Assembly (NCBI RefSeq): GCF_002854065.1
Contig: NZ_CP024147.1
From: Escherichia coli
Lineage (GTDB): Bacteria > Pseudomonadota > Gammaproteobacteria > Enterobacterales > Enterobacteriaceae
Length of the DNA stretch: 64,000 nucleotides
Strand: one strand, 5' to 3'
The translations under genes were made by a program, and so were the position numbers. Under the pieces are notes generated by a model. The model was not told the origin of the DNA. It worked only from the letters and a program-made list of their open reading frames with translations, and searched no databases. Positions 10,113 to 53,860 of the stretch are shown piece by piece. Every line of letters starts with the position of its first letter. Position 1 is the stretch's first letter.

Positions 10113-12089
10113 ATGTCTGACGACATGTCTATGGGTTTGCCTTCGTCAGCGGGCGAACACGGTGTACTACGCTCCATGCAGGAGGTTGCAATGAGCTCCC
10201 AGGAAGCCAGCAAGATGCTGCGTACTTACAATATTGCCTGGTGGGGCAATAACTACTATGACGTTAACGAGCTGGGCCACATTAGCGTGTGCCCGGACCC
10301 GGACGTCCCGGAAGCTCGCGTCGATCTCGCGCAGTTAGTGAAAACTCGTGAAGCACAGGGCCAGCGTCTGCCTGCACTGTTCTGTTTCCCACAGATCCTG
10401 CAGCACCGTTTGCGTTCCATTAACGCCGCGTTCAAACGTGCGCGGGAATCCTACGGCTATAACGGCGATTACTTCCTTGTTTATCCGATCAAAGTTAACC
10501 AGCACCGCCGCGTGATCGAGTCCCTGATTCATTCGGGCGAACCACTGGGTCTGGAAGCCGGTTCCAAAGCCGAGTTGATGGCAGTGCTGGCACATGCTGG
10601 CATGACCCGTAGCGTCATCGTCTGCAACGGTTATAAAGACCGCGAATATATCCGCCTGGCATTAATTGGCGAGAAGATGGGGCACAAGGTCTATCTGGTC
10701 ATTGAGAAGATGTCAGAAATCGCCATTGTGCTGGATGAAGCAGAACGTCTGAATGTCGTTCCTCGTCTGGGCGTGCGTGCACGTCTGGCTTCGCAGGGCT
10801 CGGGTAAATGGCAGTCCTCCGGCGGGGAAAAATCGAAGTTCGGCCTGGCTGCGACTCAGGTACTGCAACTGGTTGAAACCCTGCGTGAAGCCGGGCGTCT
10901 CGACAGCCTGCAACTACTGCACTTCCACCTCGGTTCGCAGATGGCGAATATTCGCGATATCGCCACAGGCGTTCGTGAATCGGCGCGTTTCTATGTGGAA
11001 CTGCACAAGCTGGGCGTCAATATTCAGTGCTTCGACGTCGGCGGCGGTCTGGGCGTGGATTATGAAGGTACTCGTTCGCAGTCCGACTGTTCGGTGAACT
11101 ACGGCCTCAATGAATATGCCAACAACATCATCTGGGCGATTGGTGATGCGTGTGAAGAAAACGGTCTGCCGCATCCGACGGTAATCACCGAATCGGGTCG
11201 TGCGGTGACTGCGCATCACACCGTGCTGGTGTCGAATATCATCGGCGTGGAACGTAACGAATACACGGTGCCGACCGCGCCTGCAGAAGATGCGCCGCGC
11301 GCGCTGCAAAGCATGTGGGAAACCTGGCAGGAGATGCACGAACCGGGAACTCGCCGTTCTCTGCGTGAATGGTTACACGACAGTCAGATGGATCTGCACG
11401 ACATTCATATCGGCTACTCTTCCGGCACCTTTAGCCTGCAAGAACGTGCATGGGCTGAGCAGCTTTATTTGAGCATGTGCCATGAAGTGCAAAAGCAACT
11501 GGATCCGCAAAACCGTGCTCATCGTCCGATTATCGACGAGCTGCAGGAACGTATGGCGGACAAAATGTACGTCAACTTCTCGCTGTTCCAGTCGATGCCG
11601 GATGCGTGGGGGATCGACCAGTTGTTCCCGGTTCTGCCGCTGGAAGGGCTGGATCAAGTGCCGGAACGCCGCGCTGTGCTGCTGGATATTACCTGTGACT
11701 CTGACGGTGCTATCGACCACTATATCGATGGTGATGGTATTGCCACGACAATGCCTATGCCGGAGTACGATCCAGAGAATCCGCCGATGCTCGGTTTCTT
11801 TATGGTCGGCGCATATCAGGAGATCCTCGGCAACATGCACAACCTGTTCGGTGATACCGAAGCGGTTGACGTGTTCGTCTTCCCTGACGGTAGTGTAGAA
11901 GTGGAACTGTCTGACGAAGGCGATACCGTGGCGGACATGCTGCAATATGTACAGCTCGATCCGAAAACGCTGTTAACTCAGTTCCGTGATCAAGTGAAGA
12001 AAACCGATCTTGATGCTGAACTGCAACAACAGTTCCTTGAAGAGTTCGAGGCAGGTTTGTACGGTTATACCTATCTTGAAGATGAATAA
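10113..12089 (+). CDS. speA: Biosynthetic arginine decarboxylase, 658 aa
   Basis: ORF in track (listed from a TTG at 10101); ATG at 10113 gives [40 protein letters not shown]. Confidence 0.95.
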
Positions 12090-12105
12090 TTAAGATTATT
12101 CTGCT

Positions 12106-12148
12106 GGCGGGTCGATTTATTTACGTAAATCGGCCCGCTTTCTTTTTA
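12106..12148 (+). terminator. Rho-independent terminator after speA
   Basis: Hairpin gcgggtcgattta-tttacg-taaatcggcccgc followed by tttcttttt. Confidence 0.6.
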
Positions 12149-12234
12149 TATATTCTTAAAAATAATTTAGCTGCTTTTCTTATTAAATAATCTCCCTACA
12201 ATCGCTGCATTAATTAAATGCAGAGGGAACGGTT

Positions 12235-12513
12235 ATGAAAAAATGGAAAGTACGTAGCGCGTTGGTGGCATTAATCGTGCTGCTGGCCGGTTGTTCCAGT
12301 AATGCGCAGTATAATAGCAGTGCATCGGGCAATGTCGGCACCGCCTGGGGTGGGGATGTGCACTCAACGGTTCAGGGCGTATCTGCTGAGCGAGCCTGGC
12401 GCGATCCGGCGGAGATGATCGTTATTAGTTATTCGACTAATGTTCCTTCCGGCTACGACCGCGTTTATAGCATTCGTATTAACGAACTGGAATATGCTAT
12501 TCGCGATGGGTGA
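12235..12513 (+). pseudogene. 5-prime fragment of a lipoprotein gene, truncated by IS1 (stop codon supplied by the IS1 inverted repeat)
   Basis: Signal peptide plus lipobox MKKWKVRSALVALIVLLAGC-SS; reading frame runs into the IS1 left end and ends at TGA inside ggTGAtgctgcc. Confidence 0.55.
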
Positions 12514-12563
12514 TGCTGCCAACTTACTGATTTAGTGTATGATGGTGTTTTTGAGGTGCTCCA

Positions 12564-12839
12564 GTGGCTTCTGTTTCTATCAGCTGTCCCTCCTGTTCAG
12601 CTACTGACGGGGTGGTGCGTAACGGCAAAAGCACTGCCGGACATCAGCGCTATCTCTGCTCTCACTGCCGTAAAACATGGCAACTGCAGTTCACTTACAC
12701 CGCTTCTCAACCCGGTACGCACCAGAAAATCATTGATATGGCCATGAATGGCGTTGGATGCCGGGCAACCGCCCGCATTATGGGCGTTGGCCTCAACACG
12801 ATTTTCCGCCATTTAAAAAACTCAGGCCGCAGTCGGTAA
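12564..12839 (+). CDS. insA: IS1 InsA (transposition repressor / N-terminal part of InsAB-prime transposase)
   Basis: [43 protein letters not shown]...; A6C slippery site ttaaaaaactc near 12816. Confidence 0.9.
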
Positions 12840-13261
12840 CCTCGCGCATACAGCCGGGCAGTGACGTCATCGTCTGCGCGGAAATGGACGAACAGTGGGG
12901 ATACGTCGGGGCTAAATCGCGCCAGCGCTGGCTGTTTTACGCGTATGACAGGCTCCGGAAGACGGTTGTTGCGCACGTATTCGGTGAACGCACTATGGCG
13001 ACGCTGGGGCGTCTTATGAGCCTGCTGTCACCCTTTGACGTGGTGATATGGATGACGGATGGCTGGCCGCTGTATGAATCCCGCCTGAAGGGAAAGCTGC
13101 ACGTAATCAGCAAGCGATATACGCAGCGAATTGAGCGGCATAACCTGAATCTGAGGCAGCACCTGGCACGGCTGGGACGGAAGTCGCTGTCGTTCTCAAA
13201 ATCGGTGGAGCTGCATGACAAAGTCATCGGGCATTATCTGAACATAAAACACTATCAATAA
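12758..13261 (+). CDS. insB: IS1 InsB reading frame (expressed as InsAB-prime by -1 frameshifting)
   Basis: ORF in track ...[50 protein letters not shown]... Confidence 0.9.
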
Positions 13262-13463
13262 GTTGGAGTCATTACCCACGCAAAGCACTGTTTAGTTTTA
13301 CCATAGTACTTAGTAATAAAAGCATTCATGTTTTCCTCGTATATTATTATTTAAATTCAAACCACCAACTTCATTTGCGAGTCACCGGTATCCCATATTT
13401 TTGGGATGTAGCTATAATTATCCATTCCCGCTATTTAGTCTTCAAAAAAAATTACATTTAATA

Positions 13464-14069
13464 TCATTTATCTTGATTGAGAAATAGTAAGACTAAAAAA
13501 ACAAGCGTCGTCAACCAGCACACTGCTAACACGGTAAGAACGCTAATAAAAACACTCCACTGCTTCGTTTTATACCATTCAATATTTTTGTCAGTATGTT
13601 TTATTGGGAGTAGCTCTTCAGTAGAGAATTCCTGGCTGTTATCATTCCCAGAAATGTGTGCATCAGTGTTTACTTCCCTGGCCTCGCTATCATTGGTATA
13701 GCTACTACAGTCTTCATCACTGCCACGCTCATTCTCACAGACATGTTTCTCGACCTTTCCAAGATATCTGACGCCTTTTCGCGGAATGGTTTTAATTAGA
13801 GAACTCGACAAACCAGCGATGTCTAATGCCTTTCTAAGCATGTAAATCTGCCCATAATAACTGCTGTCGCTTACCGAACCTTTCTGCTCCCGCCAAACCT
13901 CATTGATAATATGTTGCTTATCGGATTCTCCCTGTAGTAAAAGGAGTAAAAATCGATAGCCGTTTTCAGACAGATTAATTACATTGCCTGTACTGGTGGT
14001 GATACGTCGAGACGCTGGGTAAAACTTAACTCCCTGCCCTAAAGAAAAATAAAAACGGTCATCGCTCAT
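13464..14069 (-). CDS. Putative membrane-anchored ToxR/CadC-like transcriptional regulator (N-terminal winged-helix domain, C-terminal TM helix), 201 aa
   Basis: ORF in track; N-terminal region resembles OmpR/ToxR-type DNA-binding domains (GVRYLGKV); hydrophobic stretch WSVFISVLTVLAVCWLTTLVFLVLLFL near the C-terminus; lies in AT-rich DNA. Confidence 0.45.
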   Translation of the reverse strand: MSDDRFYFSLGQGVKFYPASRRITTSTGNVINLSENGYRFLLLLLQGESDKQHIINEVWREQKGSVSDSSYYGQIYMLRKALDIAGLSSSLIKTIPRKGVRYLGKVEKHVCENERGSDEDCSSYTNDSEAREVNTDAHISGNDNSQEFSTEELLPIKHTDKNIEWYKTKQWSVFISVLTVLAVCWLTTLVFLVLLFLNQDK

Positions 14070-15395
14070 AAGTACCGAACCCTGTTTTCTTCTTCACATG
14101 ACTACTCATTACAACTTTGTATGAAGTAAGATGCAAAATCATATTGTTTACATTAAGTTAAGCAATTATACCGTTTAAACAAAGACAATACGTCTCTTTA
14201 TTTCTCATAAAACCCAAATCCCTTACAGGGCTTATTGAAAAATTTAAAAATCACAAATTTCTCAATACTAAAAATGAGATCACATAAGAAATCAAAAAAC
14301 CTTCTCATCTATTTTAAGTTTTCCCAACGTAAAATAAGAGCTTTTATTAATAACTGAACCACTTTACTGTTCTATTTGTTCAGGTATTGCATTACGGTGT
14401 GCTGAGATCCATAGGTGCATCCCTGTATCCCGCGATGAGACTAAAATAGTCGTGATTTAAGCTCGTATCAGATTCTTAGTGAATACCACATTTGTTATAA
14501 TTAAGTGAAAAGATACATTGCTGATTTACATTTTTTGGTTTACAAAATGTCATCACTTACAGAGTTATCGCTGACATATACCTTTAATCTCTTAATCCTT
14601 TCGTGTTATTGCAATACAACCATCCATAAAGCAGGCTATTTTTAGCAGGAAATACTCAGGTGTCAACATTCGAACCCCAACCCTGAAATATTCATATAAA
14701 TTAATGATTTTTTCATTTATTCACACCTAATCAAAGTATTCAAATTCAGATGATTTTTCTGCTCAACAGACACAAACAGGCAATAATACTCTCCAAAGCG
14801 AACAATATTTGGCATTACGATTTAATGCTTCATAATCACCAAATCATTTAACTATAAATTTTCTTATTTTTAACGAAATGGTTGGTGTTTTTTTGGAATT
14901 AAAACACATACATAATATTAACATCTACCGACATTTCACTTTCCGCAAGACGAATGATTTCGAATCCTCATCTACGTTCTCCCATCCCAAATATCTTTAT
15001 TAATAGGCAGTAACGAACACTGTTATAGCAAGATTACCTTATTAACCTAATGGAATCCTTTATGTAACAAGTGAAAATAAATTCCTTAAAATTGATTCTC
15101 AGCAAATCTTAAAAGTTCTCATTATTCTGCAAAATCAGCTTTGCGAATAATCTTATGTTTTTGGGAATTTTGATCTGCTCATTGCTCTCGTGAAAAATAC
15201 AAACAAGAGAAAAAACGCCATTCGTCATGAAAAGAACAGACGTAGCAATGTAATAACATACTAAAATTGATCTCATGAAAGTGGGTGCTTTATAACCAGC
15301 ACAGAAGCTCAGACGTATAAATATTAAACAATTTGCATTGTAAAACGGAGACTATGTATTAAGAAGCCAATCGTAAAAACGGTTCCCTGGCGAGA

Positions 15396-15443
15396 TAAAC
15401 GACAAACAAATGGAAAGCCGGATGATATTTACCTTCATCCGGC
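15396..15443 (-). terminator. Putative rho-independent terminator after glcA
   Basis: Hairpin gccggatga / tcatccggc followed on the minus strand by tttccatttgtttgtcgttta. Confidence 0.5.
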
Positions 15444-15452
15444 ATTATTGAC

Positions 15453-17135
15453 TTACGAAACTAACATCCCGGTAAACACATACGCCTGCAACAGCGTGAT
15501 AATGCCGATAACGCTGGCAAAAATCAGACTGTGCTTCACGGTATAGCGGAACAGTTCAGATTCTCGGCCCACCATGCCCGTCGCGGCGCAGGCCACGGCG
15601 ATAGATTGCGGGGAGATCATCTTGCCAGTTACGCCGCCGCTGGTATTTGCTGCCACCAGCAGAGTGTCAGAGACGTTGATTTGCTGCGCCGTGGTCGATT
15701 GCAGTGAACCAAACAGGGCGTTAGAGGAGGTGTCCGAGCCGGTAAGGAATACGCCCAGCCAGCCGAGAAACGGTGAGAAGAACGGGAACATCACGCCTGT
15801 ACCTGCCAGTACCAGCGCCAGCGTGGTGGACATGCCGGAATAGTTGGTGACGAAAGCGAACGCCAGCACCATGCCAATCGACAATATCGGCCACTTCAGA
15901 CTAATTAGCGTTTCGGCAAAGACGCCAATCCCTTTCTTGATGCCCACGCCGAGGATGAAGATAGAGATAATCGCCGCAATAAAAATAGCGGTGCCGCCAG
16001 CCGAGAGGGGGTCGAATTTAAACACCGCATCCATCGGCGTTGGTTGGGCGACAATGGGTGCCGCTTTCAACACTTGTTGATGCAAATGAGGGATCTGGAA
16101 ATTAATCACCAGTGAATAAAACGCGCCGCCCGGAGCAAATAACGCTTTAAACGGCTTCATGGTCCAGATGGTGACCAGCACCGTTAAGATTAAAAACGGT
16201 GACCACGCTCGAATGATTTGCCCCAGACTATATTCTGAAGGCACGGGACCGCCAGAAGATGGCTTATTTACCACCATCGCACCTGCGGATTGTCCCATGC
16301 TGATTGCCGTTTCGGTATTTTTCGGCCGCCAGACTTTAAGGAATAAAGCGAGTGAGACGATACTCACCAGCGCCGAAGTAATATCCGGCAGTTCCGGACC
16401 AATATAATTAGAGGTAAAGAACTGAGTGACAGCGAAGCTTCCCCCAGCAACCAGCGCCGCTGGCCACGTCTCTTTCACCCCTTTCCAGCCGTCCATCATT
16501 GCTACCAGCCAGAACGGCACAAGAACCGACAGGAACGGTAACTGACGTCCCGCCATTGCGCCAATGTGGAACGGATCGATTCCCGTTACCTGACCGGCGA
16601 CCAGAATCGGCACGCCCAACGCACCAAACGCCACCGGCGCAGTATTGGCAATCAGACACAGCCCTGCCGCGTATAAAGGTTTGAAGCCCAGGCCCACCAG
16701 CAGAGCACCAGTAATCGCCACCGGAGCACCAAAGCCAGCCGCCCCTTCCAGCAGCGCGCCAAAGGAGAAACCAATCAGTAACACCTGCAAACGCTGATCG
16801 TCAGTGATGGAGATGACCGAGCTGCGGATAATATCAAACTGACCGCTGGCAACGGTTAATTTATAGAGGAATACCGCTGCAACAATAATCCAGGCAATAG
16901 GCCATAAACCATAAATAAAGCCATAGCCCGCAGCAGCAAATGCCATATCAATCGGCATTTTAAAGGCGAATATCGCAATCAGGATAGATAATATAAGGGT
17001 TATCGCTCCAGCGACATGTCCTTTCAGACGTAATACCGCGAGTGCAACGAAGAAGAATATTATCGGGATCAGGGCGACCAGAGCGGATAGCCCCAGTCCT
17101 CCCATCGGCATATACATTTGGGTCCAGGTAACCAT
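15453..17135 (-). CDS. glcA: Glycolate/lactate permease (LctP family), 560 aa
   Basis: Full-length polytopic ORF recognised as GlcA; last gene of the glc operon. Confidence 0.9.
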
Positions 17136-26041: not shown

Positions 26042-26411
26042 AGTTCTGTGGGTAACAAATAATTAACGGTGAAAAACAGGTTGCAACAGCAACGAACGGC
26101 ATCTTAATAATCAACCCAATGAATACAAACGACGAATAAATAGTATTTATTAATGATTACGATAGGGTCAGCGACTACGCAGAAGCGCCACAATGCCTTT
26201 TGTCGATTTAAGGCGACCGGACAAGGCTTCTTCTTAATATATTCATAAATTAAATATCATTCACAATAAAAACAAAAAACTTAAATTCATTATTTAAATC
26301 AATGTTCATTTTCACACCGATGAAAATACTATCTCATTTATCTTTTATGCCTATATAATCCACCGCATTATTGTCATTTTATTTTGGATATCCAATTTTT
26401 TCGTGGTGTAT

Positions 26412-28133
26412 ATGTCTAATAAAATCTTTACGCATTCCCTACCTATGCGCTATGCCGATTTTCCAACGCTGGTTGATGCTTTGGACTACGCCGCTCTGAG
26501 TAGCGCTGGAATGAATTTTTATGACAGACGTTGCCAACTTGAAGATCAACTGGAATATCAGACGTTAAAAGCGCGTGCCGAAGCTGGTGCGAAGCGGTTG
26601 TTATCGCTAAACCTGAAAAAAGGCGATCGCGTGGCGCTGATTGCCGAAACCAGTAGCGGGTTCGTAGAGGCTTTTTTTTCCTGCCAGTATGCCGGCTTAG
26701 TCGCCGTCCCGTTGGCGATTCCAATGGGCGTCGGTCAGCGGGATTCCTGGAGCGCCAAACTGCAGGGTTTACTGGCAAGTTGCCAGCCCGCTGCCATTAT
26801 CACTGGTGATGAGTGGTTGCCGCTGGTCAATGCCGCCACGCATAACAACCCCGAATTGCATGTATTAAGCCACGCCTGGTTTAAGGCATTACCGGAAGCT
26901 GATGTTGCGCTCCAGCGCCCAGTTCCGGACGATATCGCCTACCTCCAGTACACCTCCGGCAGCACCCGTTTTCCCCGTGGCGTCATTATCACCCATCGCG
27001 AAGTGATGGCTAATCTACGTGCTATAAGCCACGATGGCATTAAATTACGCCCTGGCGACCGCTGCGTCTCCTGGCTGCCTTTCTACCATGATATGGGACT
27101 GGTCGGCTTTCTCCTGACCCCGTTCGCCACGCAGCTTTCAGTAGATTATTTGCGCACTCAGGATTTTGCCATGCGTCCTCTGCAATGGCTTAAATTGATC
27201 AGTAAAAATCGCGGCACCGTTTCCGTTGCGCCGCCGTTTGGCTATGAATTGTGCCAGCGCCGCGTGAATGAAAAAGATCTCGCTGAACTGGATCTTTCCT
27301 GCTGGCGCGTCGCTGGTATTGGTGCAGAACCCATCTCCGCAGAACAACTCCATCAATTCGCTGAATGTTTCCGTCAGGTTAACTTTGACGATAAAACTTT
27401 CATGCCGTGCTACGGACTGGCAGAAAATGCGCTGGCTGTCAGTTTCTCTGATGAAGCCTCCGGGGTTGTGGTTAACGAAGTGGATCGCGACATCCTCGAA
27501 TATCAGGGTAAAGCCGTTGCGCCGGGTGCAGAGACACGCGCCGTATCGACTTTCGTCAACTGCGGTAAAGCGTTGCCGGAACATGGTATTGAAATCCGCA
27601 ATGAAGCAGGTATACCTGTCGCGGAACGTGTGGTAGGCCATATTTGCATCTCCGGCCCTAGCCTGATGAGCGGTTACTTTGGCGACCAGGTTTCACAAGA
27701 CGAGATTGCCGCGACGGGCTGGTTAGACACCGGGGACCTCGGTTATCTGCTGGACGGTTATCTGTATGTCACCGGACGCATTAAAGATCTGATTATTATT
27801 CGTGGCCGTAATATCTGGCCGCAGGATATTGAATATATTGCGGAACAGGAACCGGAAATTCATTCTGGCGATGCGATTGCTTTTGTTACCGCCCAGGAAA
27901 AAATCATTTTGCAGATCCAGTGTCGGATCAGCGATGAAGAACGTCGCGGGCAGCTTATCCACGCGCTGGCAGCACGGATCCAAAGCGAATTTGGCGTAAC
28001 AGCGGCTATCGATCTGTTGCCGCCCCACAGTATTCCCCGAACGTCCTCCGGTAAGCCTGCCCGTGCGGAAGCGAAAAAACGTTATCAGAAGGCTTATGCT
28101 GCCAGTCTTCATGTGCAGGAATCCCTGGCATGA
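26412..28133 (+). CDS. Fatty acyl-AMP ligase / acyl-CoA synthetase-like adenylating enzyme, about 573 aa
   Basis: AMP-binding core motif YTSGSTRFPRGVIITH and the overall architecture of ANL-superfamily enzymes; first gene of a 4-gene operon. Confidence 0.75.
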   Translation: MSNKIFTHSLPMRYADFPTLVDALDYAALSSAGMNFYDRRCQLEDQLEYQTLKARAEAGAKRLLSLNLKKGDRVALIAETSSGFVEAFFSCQYAGLVAVPLAIPMGVGQRDSWSAKLQGLLASCQPAAIITGDEWLPLVNAATHNNPELHVLSHAWFKALPEADVALQRPVPDDIAYLQYTSGSTRFPRGVIITHREVMANLRAISHDGIKLRPGDRCVSWLPFYHDMGLVGFLLTPFATQLSVDYLRTQDFAMRPLQWLKLISKNRGTVSVAPPFGYELCQRRVNEKDLAELDLSCWRVAGIGAEPISAEQLHQFAECFRQVNFDDKTFMPCYGLAENALAVSFSDEASGVVVNEVDRDILEYQGKAVAPGAETRAVSTFVNCGKALPEHGIEIRNEAGIPVAERVVGHICISGPSLMSGYFGDQVSQDEIAATGWLDTGDLGYLLDGYLYVTGRIKDLIIIRGRNIWPQDIEYIAEQEPEIHSGDAIAFVTAQEKIILQIQCRISDEERRGQLIHALAARIQSEFGVTAAIDLLPPHSIPRTSSGKPARAEAKKRYQKAYAASLHVQESLA

Positions 28134-29044
28134 ATCAAACTGTCGCGGTGACGGGCGCTACCGGGTTTATCGGTAAATATATTATCGATAACCTGCTCAC
28201 CCGCGGCTTTCACGTTCGCGCATTGACGCGTACTGCCCGCGCTCACGTCAATGATAATCTTACTTGGGTGCGCGGTTCGCTGGAAGATACACATTCGCTT
28301 AGCGAACTGGTTGCCGGAGCCAGCGCGGTGGTCCATTGCGCCGGGCAAGTGCGCGGACACAAAGAAGAGATTTTTACCCACTGTAACGTTGACGGCAGCC
28401 TGCGCCTGATGCAAGCAGCAAAAGAGAGCGGCTTTTGCCAACGTTTTCTGTTTATCTCTTCGCTGGCGGCGCGCCATCCCGAGCTCTCCTGGTACGCAAA
28501 TTCCAAACACGTCGCCGAACAACGGCTGACGGCAATGGCTGACGAAATTACGCTGGGCGTTTTTCGCCCGACAGCCGTGTATGGTCCCGGCGATAAAGAG
28601 TTAAAACCGCTGTTTGACTGGATGCTGCGCGGCCTGCTGCCACGACTTGGTGCACCAGATACACAGTTCTCTTTCCTGCATGTCACCGATTTTGCGCAAG
28701 CAGTGGGTCAGTGGTTAAGCGCCGAAACTGTACAGACGCAAACCTATGAATTATGCGATGGCGTCGCTGGCGGCTATGACTGGCAACGCGTACGACAGCT
28801 TGCCGCCGAAGCCCGTTGTGGTTCCGTGCGGATGGTTGGCCTTCCTCTGCCGGTACTCACCTGCCTTGCGGATATCAGTACTGCGTTGAGTCGCCTGGCA
28901 GGTAAAGAACCTATGCTGACCCGCTCGAAAATTCGTGAATTAACCCACGCCGACTGGTCGGCAAGTAATAACCGTATTTCTGAAGATATTAATTGTTTTC
29001 CCGGGATTAGCCTGGAACACGCATTACGCAACGGGCTATTTTGA
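28130..29044 (+). CDS. NAD(P)-dependent epimerase/dehydratase-family (SDR) oxidoreductase, 304 aa
   Basis: N-terminal Rossmann motif VTGATGFIGKYI; start overlaps the upstream stop (ATGA). Confidence 0.7.
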   Translation: MNQTVAVTGATGFIGKYIIDNLLTRGFHVRALTRTARAHVNDNLTWVRGSLEDTHSLSELVAGASAVVHCAGQVRGHKEEIFTHCNVDGSLRLMQAAKESGFCQRFLFISSLAARHPELSWYANSKHVAEQRLTAMADEITLGVFRPTAVYGPGDKELKPLFDWMLRGLLPRLGAPDTQFSFLHVTDFAQAVGQWLSAETVQTQTYELCDGVAGGYDWQRVRQLAAEARCGSVRMVGLPLPVLTCLADISTALSRLAGKEPMLTRSKIRELTHADWSASNNRISEDINCFPGISLEHALRNGLF

Positions 29045-29075
29045 TTGTCTTGTTTAAAGGTGTGTTAACGTTTCT

Positions 29076-29324
29076 ATGGTAAATCGTGAAATAGTAATGG
29101 ATTACATCCTTTCCTGTTTACAGGATTTGGTCGAAAACGGTGTGGAAATTAAGCCCGACAGCGATCTCGTCAACGATCTTGGCCTGGAGTCGATCAAAGT
29201 GATGGATCTCTTAATGATGCTGGAAGACAGATTCGATATTTCCATTCCTATTAATATTCTGCTGGATGTCAAAACCCCTGCGCAATTAATGGAAACTCTA
29301 CTTCCATGGCTGGAGAATAAATAA
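29076..29324 (+). CDS. Acyl carrier protein-like small protein, about 75-82 aa
   Basis: Phosphopantetheine-attachment-like motif DLGLESIKVMDL; acidic helical protein; start ambiguous (29076 or 29097). Confidence 0.6.
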   Translation: MVNREIVMDYILSCLQDLVENGVEIKPDSDLVNDLGLESIKVMDLLMMLEDRFDISIPINILLDVKTPAQLMETLLPWLENK

Positions 29325-30496
29325 TGGGGCTATACGATAAATATGCGCGCCTTGCTGGCGAGCGACTGCAATTTAGTGACAACGGGTTAACACCGTTTGG
29401 CACCTGTATTGATGAAGTGTATTCCGCCACCGAAGGCCGGATCGGCAATAAAAAAGTGATTCTGGCCGGGACCAATAATTACCTCGGTTTAACCTTTAAT
29501 CATGATGCCATCGCCGAAGGTCAGGCAGCGTTAGCGGCCCAAGGCACCGGCACCACCGGTTCTCGTATGGCAAACGGCAGTTATGCGCCGCACCTGGCGT
29601 TAGAGAAAGAGATTGCCGAGTTTTTCAATCGCCCTACCGCTATCGTTTTTTCAACCGGTTATACCGCTAATTTAGGCGTCATCAGCGCACTTGCCGACCA
29701 TAACGCCGTGGTGTTACTGGATGCCGACAGCCACGCCAGTATTTATGACGCCTGTTCTCTCGGTGGCGCGGAAATTATTCGTTTCCGCCATAACGATGCT
29801 AAAGATCTGGAACGGCGCATGGTTCGCCTCGGTGAACGGGCGAAAGAGGCGATTATCATCGTTGAGGGTATCTACAGCATGCTCGGTGACGTTGCGCCGC
29901 TGGCGGAAATTGTTGATATCAAACGTCGTCTCGGTGGTTATTTGATTGTCGATGAAGCGCATTCGTTTGGCGTGTTAGGCGCAACGGGGCGCGGACTGGC
30001 TGAAGCTGTCGGCGTTGAAGATGATGTGGATATTATCGTTGGCACCTTCAGTAAAAGTCTGGCCTCGATTGGCGGTTTTGCTGTCGGTTCGGAAGCGATG
30101 GAAGTACTGCGCTACGGCAGCCGCCCGTATATTTTTACCGCCTCTCCTTCTCCGTCCTGCATTGCGACCGTGCGCTCGTCGTTAAAAACTATTGCCACAC
30201 AACCAGAGCTGCGGCAAAAGCTGATGGATAACGCCAACCATCTGTATGACGGTCTGCAAAAACTGGGTTATGAGTTAAGTTCACATATTAGCCCGGTAGT
30301 GCCGGTAATAATCGGTTCGAAAGAGGAAGGTTTACGCATCTGGCGCGAGCTTATTTCGCTGGGCGTTTATGTGAATCTTATCCTGCCACCTGCCGCGCCT
30401 GCAGGCATCACGCTGCTGCGCTGTAGCGTAAACGCTGCCCACAGTCGTGAGCAAATCGATGCCATCATTCAGGCATTTGCTACTCTGAAGCAGTAA
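29324..30496 (+). CDS. PLP-dependent alpha-oxoamine synthase family enzyme (BioF / serine palmitoyltransferase / CqsA-like), 390 aa
   Basis: Class-II aminotransferase fold with lysine motif GTFSKSLASIGGF; start overlaps the ACP stop. Confidence 0.75.
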   Translation: MGLYDKYARLAGERLQFSDNGLTPFGTCIDEVYSATEGRIGNKKVILAGTNNYLGLTFNHDAIAEGQAALAAQGTGTTGSRMANGSYAPHLALEKEIAEFFNRPTAIVFSTGYTANLGVISALADHNAVVLLDADSHASIYDACSLGGAEIIRFRHNDAKDLERRMVRLGERAKEAIIIVEGIYSMLGDVAPLAEIVDIKRRLGGYLIVDEAHSFGVLGATGRGLAEAVGVEDDVDIIVGTFSKSLASIGGFAVGSEAMEVLRYGSRPYIFTASPSPSCIATVRSSLKTIATQPELRQKLMDNANHLYDGLQKLGYELSSHISPVVPVIIGSKEEGLRIWRELISLGVYVNLILPPAAPAGITLLRCSVNAAHSREQIDAIIQAFATLKQ

Positions 30497-30530
30497 TGTG
30501 AGCCCGCCGTGGTGTTGCGCCACGGCGGGT

Positions 30531-31610
30531 TTAATGTTGTCTGTCATACCAATACACCAGGCTCAACGCCACCAGCACAAACGCTATCGGTAAACCGAGC
30601 GCGGTAACAGGTGCGCTCAACGCAAATAGCAATCCCAGATTGACCATGATTTGATAGCTGATCCAGGTGAGTAAGCCAACGATGACACCTACAGCGAGAC
30701 GGCTACCCATCCCTGGCGAGCGCGGGGCACTAAAGGTAAACGGCACAGCCAGCAAAATCATCGCCAGGGTCAGGATGGGTTGCCCCAGTTTTTCCCACAG
30801 TGCAAGGCGGTATTCGCTGCTGGGTTGCCCGGTTTCCTGCAAATAATGGATGTAATGATTAAGCTGACGGACAGAAAAAGTATTCCCCGGCATCGATAGC
30901 TCTTCAAGATCCATACTGGTGAAGGCCGATTGCCAGGCAAGATTATCTGATGTTTCCAGCGTTTCTTTGCCATTCAGCCATTTTTTATGATTCACACCAT
31001 GCAGGATCCACGTTTTGTCGTCTTCAATGGTGGCACTGCGTGCATAAATGTAGGATTCGAGCGAAAGATCATCACGATAATGAAAAATCTCCACGCGCAC
31101 AGGCTGGCCCTGCTCGTTCAGCGATTTTACCGTCACAAATTCATTACCGCGCCTGGCCCACAGCATATTGCCGGTAATGTCATCGTCCTCACCCAACGCA
31201 GTGGCAGTCGATTTGATTTGCAGCGCCTGTTGCTGCAATGGCGACGCTACCCACTCATCTATCGCGCCTAACGAAACAGTCCACAATATCCCGGCAACCA
31301 GCGCCACCAGTGCAATACGGAAGATAGAAAACCCCGTGCTGCGAATGGCGGTAAGCTCACTGTTTTTCGATAACTGCCCCAGGCCAACAATCCCTCCCAA
31401 TAAGGCGATAAACGGCGAAAGTTCGACCAGTGTGCGCGGTAAGGTCATTAGCACCACCAGCACCGCCTGAGTCCAGCGATAACCGCCCGGGCTGACATCA
31501 TCCAGTTCGTTAATCAGGTTGAAGGTGGTAAAAAGCGGCAGCAATAGCCCTGCGGCGGCGGCAAAACCGAGAAAGAGATGACGGATTAAATAGCGACTGA
31601 AAACATTCAT
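30531..31610 (-). CDS. LptF/LptG-family (YjgP/YjgQ) permease paralog, about 359 aa
   Basis: N-terminus MNVFSRYLIRHLFLGFAAAAGLL resembles LptF/LptG; polytopic with a large central soluble loop; start set at the Met with overlap to the upstream gene stop. Confidence 0.55.
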   Translation of the reverse strand: MNVFSRYLIRHLFLGFAAAAGLLLPLFTTFNLINELDDVSPGGYRWTQAVLVVLMTLPRTLVELSPFIALLGGIVGLGQLSKNSELTAIRSTGFSIFRIALVALVAGILWTVSLGAIDEWVASPLQQQALQIKSTATALGEDDDITGNMLWARRGNEFVTVKSLNEQGQPVRVEIFHYRDDLSLESYIYARSATIEDDKTWILHGVNHKKWLNGKETLETSDNLAWQSAFTSMDLEELSMPGNTFSVRQLNHYIHYLQETGQPSSEYRLALWEKLGQPILTLAMILLAVPFTFSAPRSPGMGSRLAVGVIVGLLTWISYQIMVNLGLLFALSAPVTALGLPIAFVLVALSLVYWYDRQH

Positions 31611-32677
31611 CGGGAAAATTTCTGCAGCAAAGAGAAGTCGCGTGCGACCAGCATCAGCAGGCCCATTAGCATGAGTCCGGGCACTAACCACAAACCAGGA
31701 ATGAGAGGAATCGCGCCGTTAGCCACCAGCGTACGGCAGACGTCGCCGCCATAAAAAATGGCAATAAACAGCAACGTCAGTGGCAATAACGTTGAAAATC
31801 GCCCCTGCCGCGGTTTTACCCGACTTAATGAAATGGCCAGCAGCGCCATCAACAATGCTGTCAGGCCACGGCTTTGTCGCCATTGCAGTTCGGCATGATC
31901 GGCTGGAAAGACGGAGCGCGCCAGCTCCGTGACCGATTTCGCTTTGCGTTTGACGTTAGGGCTTTGATCCAGCGGATTCAGATGTAATTGCAGATTACGG
32001 TAGATCTGTTCGTTGTCGTCACGCCCCTGATGATCGAGAAGATAGGCAGTGCCGTTGTGCAACATAACAGTCGGTTTCTCGGGTGATGGGTCAACCACAT
32101 CAACCGAACGGGCGCGGAAAATGCGGGTTCGATTGGCAGTAGAAGTATAAATCAGCGCGTCAGTCAGGCGATTATTATCCTGATCAACCGTCTGCGAAAG
32201 GATCATTCGTCCGTTATCGTTAGTGTTAAATTTCTTTGCCCGCAACTGGCGAACATCCAGCTCCGACTGCGACTGCTGCTCCAGTTGATAAATCTGCGCA
32301 TAAGCCCACGGACGACCATACATCGACAGAAGGGTGACAAAAATACTTAGCGGTATCGCCAGATAAAGAACGGCTTTGTACAAGCGTCCCGGACTGCCCC
32401 CCGCCGCAGAGATAGCGGTAATTTCCGAGTCGGTATACATCTGCCCTAGCGTCACGCCAACTGACACATACAGTCCAACAGGTAACAACATCTCCAGTGC
32501 AATCAGCACTTTGTAGAAAACGATATCCAGCACAACATCAAGTGCTAATGTCCCATTTGCCGCTTCGGTCAGATAACGCTGTGCGGAGTAGCTGGCGAAA
32601 ATAAAGATCAGAAAACCGACGATAATCAGCACCAGACGGCGCGTACCACGCATGATGTAGTGTTCAACCAGCTTCAT
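31607..32677 (-). CDS. LptF/LptG-family (YjgP/YjgQ) permease paralog, 356 aa
   Basis: Same architecture as the adjacent gene; translationally coupled pair. Confidence 0.55.
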   Translation of the reverse strand: MKLVEHYIMRGTRRLVLIIVGFLIFIFASYSAQRYLTEAANGTLALDVVLDIVFYKVLIALEMLLPVGLYVSVGVTLGQMYTDSEITAISAAGGSPGRLYKAVLYLAIPLSIFVTLLSMYGRPWAYAQIYQLEQQSQSELDVRQLRAKKFNTNDNGRMILSQTVDQDNNRLTDALIYTSTANRTRIFRARSVDVVDPSPEKPTVMLHNGTAYLLDHQGRDDNEQIYRNLQLHLNPLDQSPNVKRKAKSVTELARSVFPADHAELQWRQSRGLTALLMALLAISLSRVKPRQGRFSTLLPLTLLFIAIFYGGDVCRTLVANGAIPLIPGLWLVPGLMLMGLLMLVARDFSLLQKFSR

Positions 32678-53639: not shown

Positions 53640-53860
53640 ACTCTTACCTGATGTGGCGAAAACGCCTTATCCACCTACAAACGCATGAAGATTCAACATG
53701 TTGCAATAGATTTTGTAGGACTGATAAGCGTAGCGCATCAGGCATTGAGCACCTAATGCCGGATGCGGCGTGAACGCCTTATCCGGCCTACAAACGCACG
53801 AAGATTCAACATGTTGCAATAGATTTTGTAGGCCTGATGAGCGTAGCGCATCAGGCAATT
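53640..53860. repeat. Tandem BIME/REP cluster (about 100-bp unit present twice)
   Basis: Unit acaaacgca(t/c)gaagattcaacatgttgcaatagattttgtagg(a/c)ctgat(a/g)agcgtagcgcatcaggca repeated at about 53680 and 53790, flanked by REP motif gccggatgcggcgtgaacgccttatccggcctac. Confidence 0.7.

Follow-up and report, generated by a model that had tools for sequence, protein, structure and literature searches.

What is the reading frame that follows speA at the position where speB would be expected? In the window (the whole 64,000-nt stretch of Escherichia coli DNA analysed here), speA is followed by a short open reading frame (ORF) that begins like a lipoprotein gene and ends at an IS1 element. The initial annotation offered two explanations, a lineage-specific gene that replaced or preceded speB, or sequence brought in by an earlier rearrangement. 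The evidence below makes it very probable that the ORF is what remains, the 5′ third, of a conserved native gene encoding a lipoprotein of 243 residues, truncated by IS1 into a pseudogene at the probable breakpoint of a ~37-kb inversion. The features on which the argument rests are the following:

12106–12149, plus strand: intrinsic terminator of speA with a 15-bp stem, a 4-nt loop and a T-run (terminator scan; RNA fold)
12235–12294, plus strand: lipoprotein signal peptide with lipobox LAGC and predicted lipidation site Cys20 at 12292–12294 (translation)
12235–12513, plus strand: the 92-codon ORF as originally flagged, with codon 92 (GGG) and the TGA completed by IS1 bases
12235–12508, plus strand: 5′ remnant (codons 1–91 and 1 nt) of the lipoprotein gene downstream of speA, whose full product has 243 aa; presumed pseudogene (blastn versus the gene in locus L001)
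12500–12508, no strand: 9-bp target site ttcgcgatg at the left end of IS1, absent from the other side of the element
12509–13276, plus strand: IS1, 768 bp, with intact insA (12564–12839) and insB′ frame (12758–13261) (end repeats, ORFs)
13277–13329, minus strand: 5′ remnant (17 codons and 2 nt) of a type IVb pilin gene of the Flp family (translation)
13464–14069, minus strand: intact but orphaned winged-helix regulator (OmpR/ToxR-type), left over from the tad/flp locus that has been lost (Pfam Trans_reg_C, E = 5e-5)
15453–17135, minus strand: glcA, which serves as orientation anchor, the right flank having the K-12 orientation and the left flank (metK, speA) being reversed

The start of a lipoprotein gene directly after speA

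The stop codon of speA lies at 12089 and is directly followed by the terminator, whose hairpin folds at −23.4 kcal/mol (z = −6.5 versus shuffled sequences) and which is identical in genomes carrying the intact lipoprotein gene (locus L001, 6017–6060). The ORF listing then gives a 92-codon ORF on the plus strand (12235–12513), which starts with ATG, encodes 92 aa and begins MKKWKVRSALVALIVLLAGCSSN... / MKKWKVRSALVALIVLLAGCSSNAQYNSS.... A Shine-Dalgarno sequence, GAGGGA, is located 6 nt before the ATG, and a promoter scan returned no consensus sigma-70 promoter upstream of the ORF. The N-terminus has the make-up of a lipoprotein precursor: the n-region is positively charged, with four basic residues among the first seven (K2, K3, K5 and R7), the hydrophobic core reads ALVALIVLL, and the lipobox L17-A18-G19-C20 fits the pattern [LVI][ASTVI][GAS]C, with the Cys within ~35 residues. 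In translation, 72 residues remain after Cys20, in agreement with the original description of a lipoprotein gene start with an LLAGC lipobox and about 70 further residues. It was likewise correct that the ORF does not encode agmatinase. Pfam searches with the fragment and with the full-length protein revealed no arginase/agmatinase domain (PF00491), and blastn with speB found no copy of that gene in the whole 64-kb window. An Rfam scan of 9300–15500 yielded no RNA family.

The ORF is the 5′ part of a longer gene

In loci L001, L002 and L015, the annotation places a full version of this gene between speA and speB, and its product is variously named 'lipoprotein', 'membrane protein' or 'hypothetical protein' (WP_000758914.1, WP_080029964.1). 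The full gene comprises 732 bp and encodes 243 aa, the first 92 of which are identical to the window ORF. In blastn with the L001 copy, window 12235–12509 is 100% identical to nt 1–275 of the annotated full gene; the native sequence ends at 12508/12509, where IS1 cuts the gene after nt 274, and nothing beyond nt 1–275 matched, i.e. the 3′ 457 nt of the gene are not in the 64-kb window. The stop codon of the ORF (12511–13) sits within the left inverted repeat of IS1. Since the native gene reads gat ggt aat where the ORF ends (reference locus L001), Gly92, native ggt versus the IS1-completed GGG, is kept by coincidence.

Compared to the gene encoding WP_000758914.1 or WP_080029964.1 (O157:H7, O145:H28, clone D i14, CUWW06), residues 1–92 are identical, and the window shares with these strains the speA terminator, the intergenic sequence before the gene and the gene's location. 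Unlike in the WP_000758914.1 strains, however, the window copy stops at codon 92, residues 93–243 with the conserved core are absent and no speB follows. The remnant keeps the ribosome-binding site, the signal peptide, the lipobox and 72 mature residues. It retains only 3 of the 18 invariant positions of the family and has lost the other 15; the invariant residues from Y122 to F182 all lie beyond codon 92, and the core motif (residues ~119–213, YxLxxRNxS...YEIVATVDGLDV...GY...IxGFR...AAFxF) is missing. In the AF2 model of the intact protein, 5 of the 15 predicted strands fall within residues 1–92. With 15 invariant residues and most of the predicted beta-sandwich lost, we therefore regard the window ORF as a remnant of a family member rather than a functional member, that is, an IS1-truncated pseudogene from which no function is expected. 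The appropriate annotation would be IS1-truncated pseudogene of the speA-downstream lipoprotein, not new gene.

IS1 joins the gene to an unrelated locus

The element at the truncation point has a left-end repeat reading GGTGATGCTGCC... / GGTGATGCTGCCAACTTACTG... from 12509 and a right end reading ...GGAGTCATTACC at 13276, imperfect terminal inverted repeats of ~23 bp and overlapping insA/insB′ frames. It is the only IS1 in the window, the left-end repeat having been matched once, and it is 100% identical to the annotated IS1B copies of CUWW06. The 9 bp on its left flank (ttcgcgatg) differ from those on its right flank (cacgcaaag, 13277–13285); there is therefore no 9-bp target duplication. The IS1 junction is the product of a rearrangement and not of a simple insertion.

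On its right side, IS1 abuts the remnant of the pilin gene, the translation of which, MNAFITKYYGKTKQCFA, was compared with the intact 78-aa Flp pilin of PapRG-06-5. The winged-helix regulator is annotated (WP_032281583.1) beside flp in the PapRG-06-5 locus (L004), and the glc operon continues beyond glcA. A tad/flp locus beside glcA occurs in few E. coli. In the window, the ~12 kb tad/flp type IVb pilus operon beside glcA has been deleted from IS1 outwards (window 13277–14069; L004 1–12053; L003 8310–9077), leaving 17 flp codons and the orphaned winged-helix regulator, and this deletion is common to CUWW06.

The flanks of IS1 are in opposite orientation relative to other genomes

In K-12, the genes are arranged in the order tktA(−) loiP(+) speB(−) speA(−) ... 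metK(+) galP(+) ... speC, pheV ... glcA(−) glcB(−). The window has the order ... galP(−) metK(−) speA(+) lipo′(+), then IS1, then flp′(−) wHTH(−) glcA(−) glcB(−). The two window flanks thus match opposite strands in K-12, and they also do so in CUWW06, 100416 and PapRG-06-5.

Left of IS1, up to and including position 12509, CUWW06 (NZ_CP182139.1) agrees with the window at every base; right of IS1, there are 14 mismatches in 49,901 positions. CUWW06 carries an intact lipoprotein gene with speB, loiP and tkt behind it, in the standard orientation. The IS1-flp junction of the window, gtcattacc/cacgcaaag (slash at the boundary), is identically present in CUWW06, where the left end of this IS1 abuts a TcfC-like gene (cccagcccg/ggtgatg). 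In PapRG-06-5, the entire tad operon separates flp from the TcfC-like gene, which lies ~12 kb farther on. In CUWW06, the position of the gene breakpoint and the flp-side IS1 are ~37 kb apart. As CUWW06 shares both the IS1-flp junction and the tad deletion, IS1 at flp and the deletion of the tad locus would predate the split of the two strains, and the lipoprotein junction would be newer and specific to the window genome. The exact lipoprotein-IS1-flp junction was found in none of the 5,426 complete E. coli genomes, and an exact-junction scan of GTDB species representatives gave no match. CUWW06 carries an additional IS1 in the winged-helix regulator gene (L003 9424–10191, corresponding to window ~13621) with a clean 9-bp duplication, gctcttcag; this copy is absent from the window. 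IS1 is therefore actively transposing within the clone.

An inversion most likely separated the gene from its 3′ part and speB

From the orientation of the flanks, an inversion is the most likely origin of the junction, with a reciprocal junction that is predicted to lie outside the window and was found in no collection. In a first step, IS1 would already have resided at the flp junction and the tad pilus locus would have been deleted, the state common to CUWW06. In a second step, the ~37-kb segment from the lipoprotein gene to IS1 (speA, metK, ... speC, pheV) would have been inverted. Two routes could lead there. The flp-side IS1 may have undergone intramolecular replicative transposition into the ttcgcgatg hot spot in one step (route a), which would keep the old right-end junction, make a new left-end junction, invert the segment and leave a second, inverted IS1 copy. 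Alternatively, an independent, inverted IS1 may have inserted in the gene, followed by homologous recombination between the two inverted copies (route b). By both routes, the 3′ part of the gene, then speB, would be located beside an inverted IS1 ~25 kb beyond the left end of the window. The predicted reciprocal junction would read ...AAGTTGGAGTCATTACC/TTCGCGATG/GTAATTTTAATTCTCTACC..., then the remaining 457 nt of the gene, then speB; the predicted retained junction would read ...CACTCCCAGCCCG/GGTGATGCTGCC..., i.e. the TcfC-like gene joined to the left end of IS1. If IS1 generated the inversion, the 9 bp TTCGCGATG would be expected at each new junction. The history could also have been more complex, for instance if the 3′ part and speB had been lost after an inversion.

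Deletions and inversions by intramolecular transposition are typical of IS1 (reviewed in PMC9330008). The window resembles such IS1-promoted intramolecular rearrangements in that the junction is situated exactly at the IS1 terminus, there is no target duplication and the neighbouring segment is inverted (PMC9330008). What defines the IS1-promoted mechanism is a second, inverted IS1 copy together with a split target duplication; the window spans one end of the presumed inversion.

The same element could in principle have produced an adjacent deletion between the lipoprotein gene and flp, with speB, loiP and tktA lost from the genome. Such an event would agree with the lack of a target duplication at IS1, IS1 is known for it (PMC9330008), and the same IS1 evidently removed the tad locus in the ancestor shared with CUWW06. 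However, a deletion between the two breakpoints in the reference order would take away speA and metK while leaving speB and the gene's 3′ part in place. The window shows the opposite: speA, metK and the 5′ part of the gene are present, reversed relative to glcA. Moreover, the intervening segment holds metK and ruvX (yqgF), both of which are essential in E. coli. We consider this scenario improbable, and a plain-deletion reading of the IS1 junction was rejected based on strand orientation relative to K-12 and three other genomes. Under the preferred inversion, the lack of speB here should, pending a check of the remaining genome, be read as rearrangement rather than as pathway loss. The likely ~37-kb, IS1-bounded inversion sets this genome apart from the near-clonal CUWW06.

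The truncation site resembles an IS1 insertion hot spot

A look-up in public assemblies retrieved the exact 92-aa product on at least 23 contigs, and the lineages carrying it share 97.99% to 99.6% identity with the window across 10 kb. In CP055786.1 (L024 10265–11050), IS1 resides at the same 9 bp, and ttcgcgatg is duplicated, with the gene's 3′ part and speB next in line; the orientation of this IS1 is opposite to that in the window. Two short-read contigs have IS1 in the orientation seen in CP055786.1, one metagenome contig has the window's junction of the gene and the left end of IS1, and one contig carries a diverged IS1-like end (GGTTGATGCGCC) at the same place, 1–2 nt away (loci L025–L028). 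Judging from these alleles, ttcgcgatg (window 12500–12508) looks like an insertion hot spot for IS1, used in several unrelated lineages and in both orientations. Other strains have IS1 at different points of the gene, LY180 (E. coli W lineage) at 16 bp upstream and GN25 close to codon 182, and a 174-aa truncated allele of the lipoprotein comprises 448 member sequences. Given the IS1 alleles, the 174-aa allele and the absence of the gene from K-12, the lipoprotein gene is therefore dispensable and has been repeatedly inactivated.

The LY180, GN25 and CP055786.1 alleles have in common with the window that IS1 lies in the same lipoprotein gene, and CP055786.1 and several short-read contigs additionally share its 9-bp target and its 92-aa product. 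All three are nevertheless simple insertions with a 9-bp duplication and with the 3′ part and speB following, while the far side of the window IS1 is the unrelated flp/glcA locus, inverted. The CP055786.1 insertion was rejected as a precursor of the window arrangement, as its IS1 has the opposite orientation and recombination with the flp-side IS1 would delete, not invert, the segment in between.

These alleles also bear on the idea that a functional, lineage-specific 92-aa lipoprotein gene replaced speB. The ORF is intact, with a Shine-Dalgarno sequence, a signal peptide and a lipobox, and gene finders called the exact product on the 23 or more public contigs. Yet a 243-aa protein begins with exactly these 92 residues, the stop codon of the ORF lies within IS1, IS1 truncation at this site also accounts for the identical products elsewhere, and the best-conserved part of the family is missing; we thus consider a functional short gene very unlikely. 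The finding rather identifies a recurrent IS1 target site and represents ordinary genome decay in an IS1-rich E. coli clone.

The lipoprotein gene belongs to the speA-speB region

We searched 5,426 complete E. coli genomes by megablast with 12090–12513 as the query. Matches were obtained in 3,557 genomes, with 3,543 (65%) covering at least 80% of the query; all of the latter are chromosomal, with 90–100% identity (nearly all at least 95%). Every megablast match ends at query position 420, which corresponds to window 12509. In Klebsiella, the gene order is speA-lipoprotein-speB, and in Salmonella speA-lipoprotein is followed by a GntR/mannitol-dehydrogenase insert. Relative to Salmonella and Klebsiella orthologues, the dN/dS of the lipoprotein gene is ~0.07–0.12 with saturated dS, and the intact family is under purifying selection.

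K-12 MG1655 lacks the lipoprotein gene; the speA-speB spacing is 137 bp. A match of the fragment to a known K-12 gene directly after speA, which would have refuted the initial annotation, is thus not the case. MG1655 shares speA, as well as the hairpin and leader immediately upstream of speB, with gene-carrying strains. In the alignment, K-12 has 60 bp in place of a 935-bp segment made up of the speA terminator, the lipoprotein gene and 58 bp flanking its 3′ end (L013 4799–4935 versus L001 6001–6935), and these 60 bp loosely resemble only the last ~50 bp of the 935-bp segment. Presence or absence of the lipoprotein gene between speA and speB is an old polymorphism, with ~35% of complete E. coli genomes being of the K-12 type.

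Taken by its distribution, the gene is native to the spot after speA, chromosomal and neither new nor imported. Its adjoining an IS element and its absence from K-12 could suggest a foreign origin, with entry alongside IS1 or through an older rearrangement. This is scarcely credible, given that the intergenic region and the beginning of the gene run on from speA with 100% identity in thousands of genomes, that the position is common to Klebsiella and Salmonella and that matches to the lipoprotein sequence in a plasmid collection were confined to non-mobilizable records, most of them megabase-scale, with no sign of mobility. Of the two explanations offered at the outset, the first holds insofar as the gene does precede speB, but it is not lineage-specific, being found in 65% of complete E. 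coli genomes and in Klebsiella and Salmonella, and it did not replace speB. The second has to be turned around: the gene is native to the spot, and the rearrangement would have split it from its 3′ two-thirds and from speB.

The intact lipoprotein represents a widespread family

A word-indexed search with the intact protein returned 229 proteins at E ≤ 1e-3, the best homologues reaching E = 1e-154. Homologues from Salmonella, Klebsiella, Citrobacter and Kluyvera show 60–75% identity, those from Variovorax, Acidovorax, Paracoccus and Azoarcus 36–43%. An exhaustive profile search extended the family to 4,183 clusters (50% identity) at E ≤ 1e-3, with 3,253 at E ≤ 1e-10. Cys20 is invariant in 89 homologues, and residues ~119–213 are the best-conserved part. 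Between E. coli and Salmonella, the stretch lost from the window shows slower evolution than the part that is left (dN/dS of 0.04 versus 0.14).

Pfam and NCBIfam searches with the fragment and the full-length protein gave only sub-threshold matches confined to the signal peptide. DUF7537 (15.1 bits versus a cut-off of 31.7), ActS (16.7 bits versus 375) and LptM (15.2 bits versus 27.7) were each rejected, the matches covering residues ~1–50 only. Pfam searches with 89 aligned homologues and 10 longer, distant members yielded no match, and a profile search of PDB sequences gave none even at E = 10. The AlphaFold model of the intact protein is predicted to be all-beta, with a pLDDT of 81 overall and of more than 90 for residues ~32–215. 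In E. coli, a Ser at position +2 of a lipoprotein predicts sorting to the outer membrane (+2 rule), and with Ser at +2 the intact protein is probably anchored there. Our working reading is that of a binding module, built as a beta-sandwich, that would face the periplasm and be tethered to the outer membrane.

In Variovorax and Acidovorax (Comamonadaceae), the homologue gene is located between hisD and hisC, inside the his operon. Other distant homologues are encoded in unrelated contexts or stand alone, with no consistent partner, and no polyamine-linked neighbourhoods of homologues were seen outside Enterobacteriaceae. Literature searches (speA/speB/lipoprotein, locus tags, extra genes in his operons) found no paper on the protein. 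The fixed place of the gene between the enzymes leading from arginine to putrescine might hint at an envelope role tied to agmatine/polyamine handling via a new beta-sandwich fold, a speculation that we rate as a long shot; if it were true, the window remnant would be a natural knockout in an IS1-rich lineage. Two-thirds of E. coli carry the gene, which is conserved across Enterobacteriaceae and has been repeatedly lost; its family has no Pfam model, solved relative or literature.

Some members (e.g. P0254; proteins P0135–P0280) carry the N-terminal 'GTxWGE...IxY' module after the core domain, a placement that suggests two separable modules or a circular permutation. A small ORF (122–129 aa) follows the his-operon homologue in Variovorax and Acidovorax (L009 5837–6205; L017 4844–5233), and the Variovorax version weakly matches Rap1a, a T6SS immunity-protein family.

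Other features of the window

Elsewhere in the window, yggR, encoding a PilT/PilU-type ATPase (859–1913), is split in two overlapping ORFs, 859–1392 and 1350–1913, and is annotated as frameshifted in CUWW06 too. Beside yghO, at ~26403–32677, there are genes for a fatty acyl-AMP ligase, an epimerase/dehydratase, an acyl carrier protein and a serine palmitoyltransferase, a cluster that suggests an unusual lipid pathway. It is followed by second copies of lptF and lptG (all names from the CUWW06 annotation), and K-12 has remnants only. Between yghA and exbD, at 53647–53857, a pair of inverted ~99-bp repeats that are ~91% alike is probably an intergenic element of the REP/BIME type.
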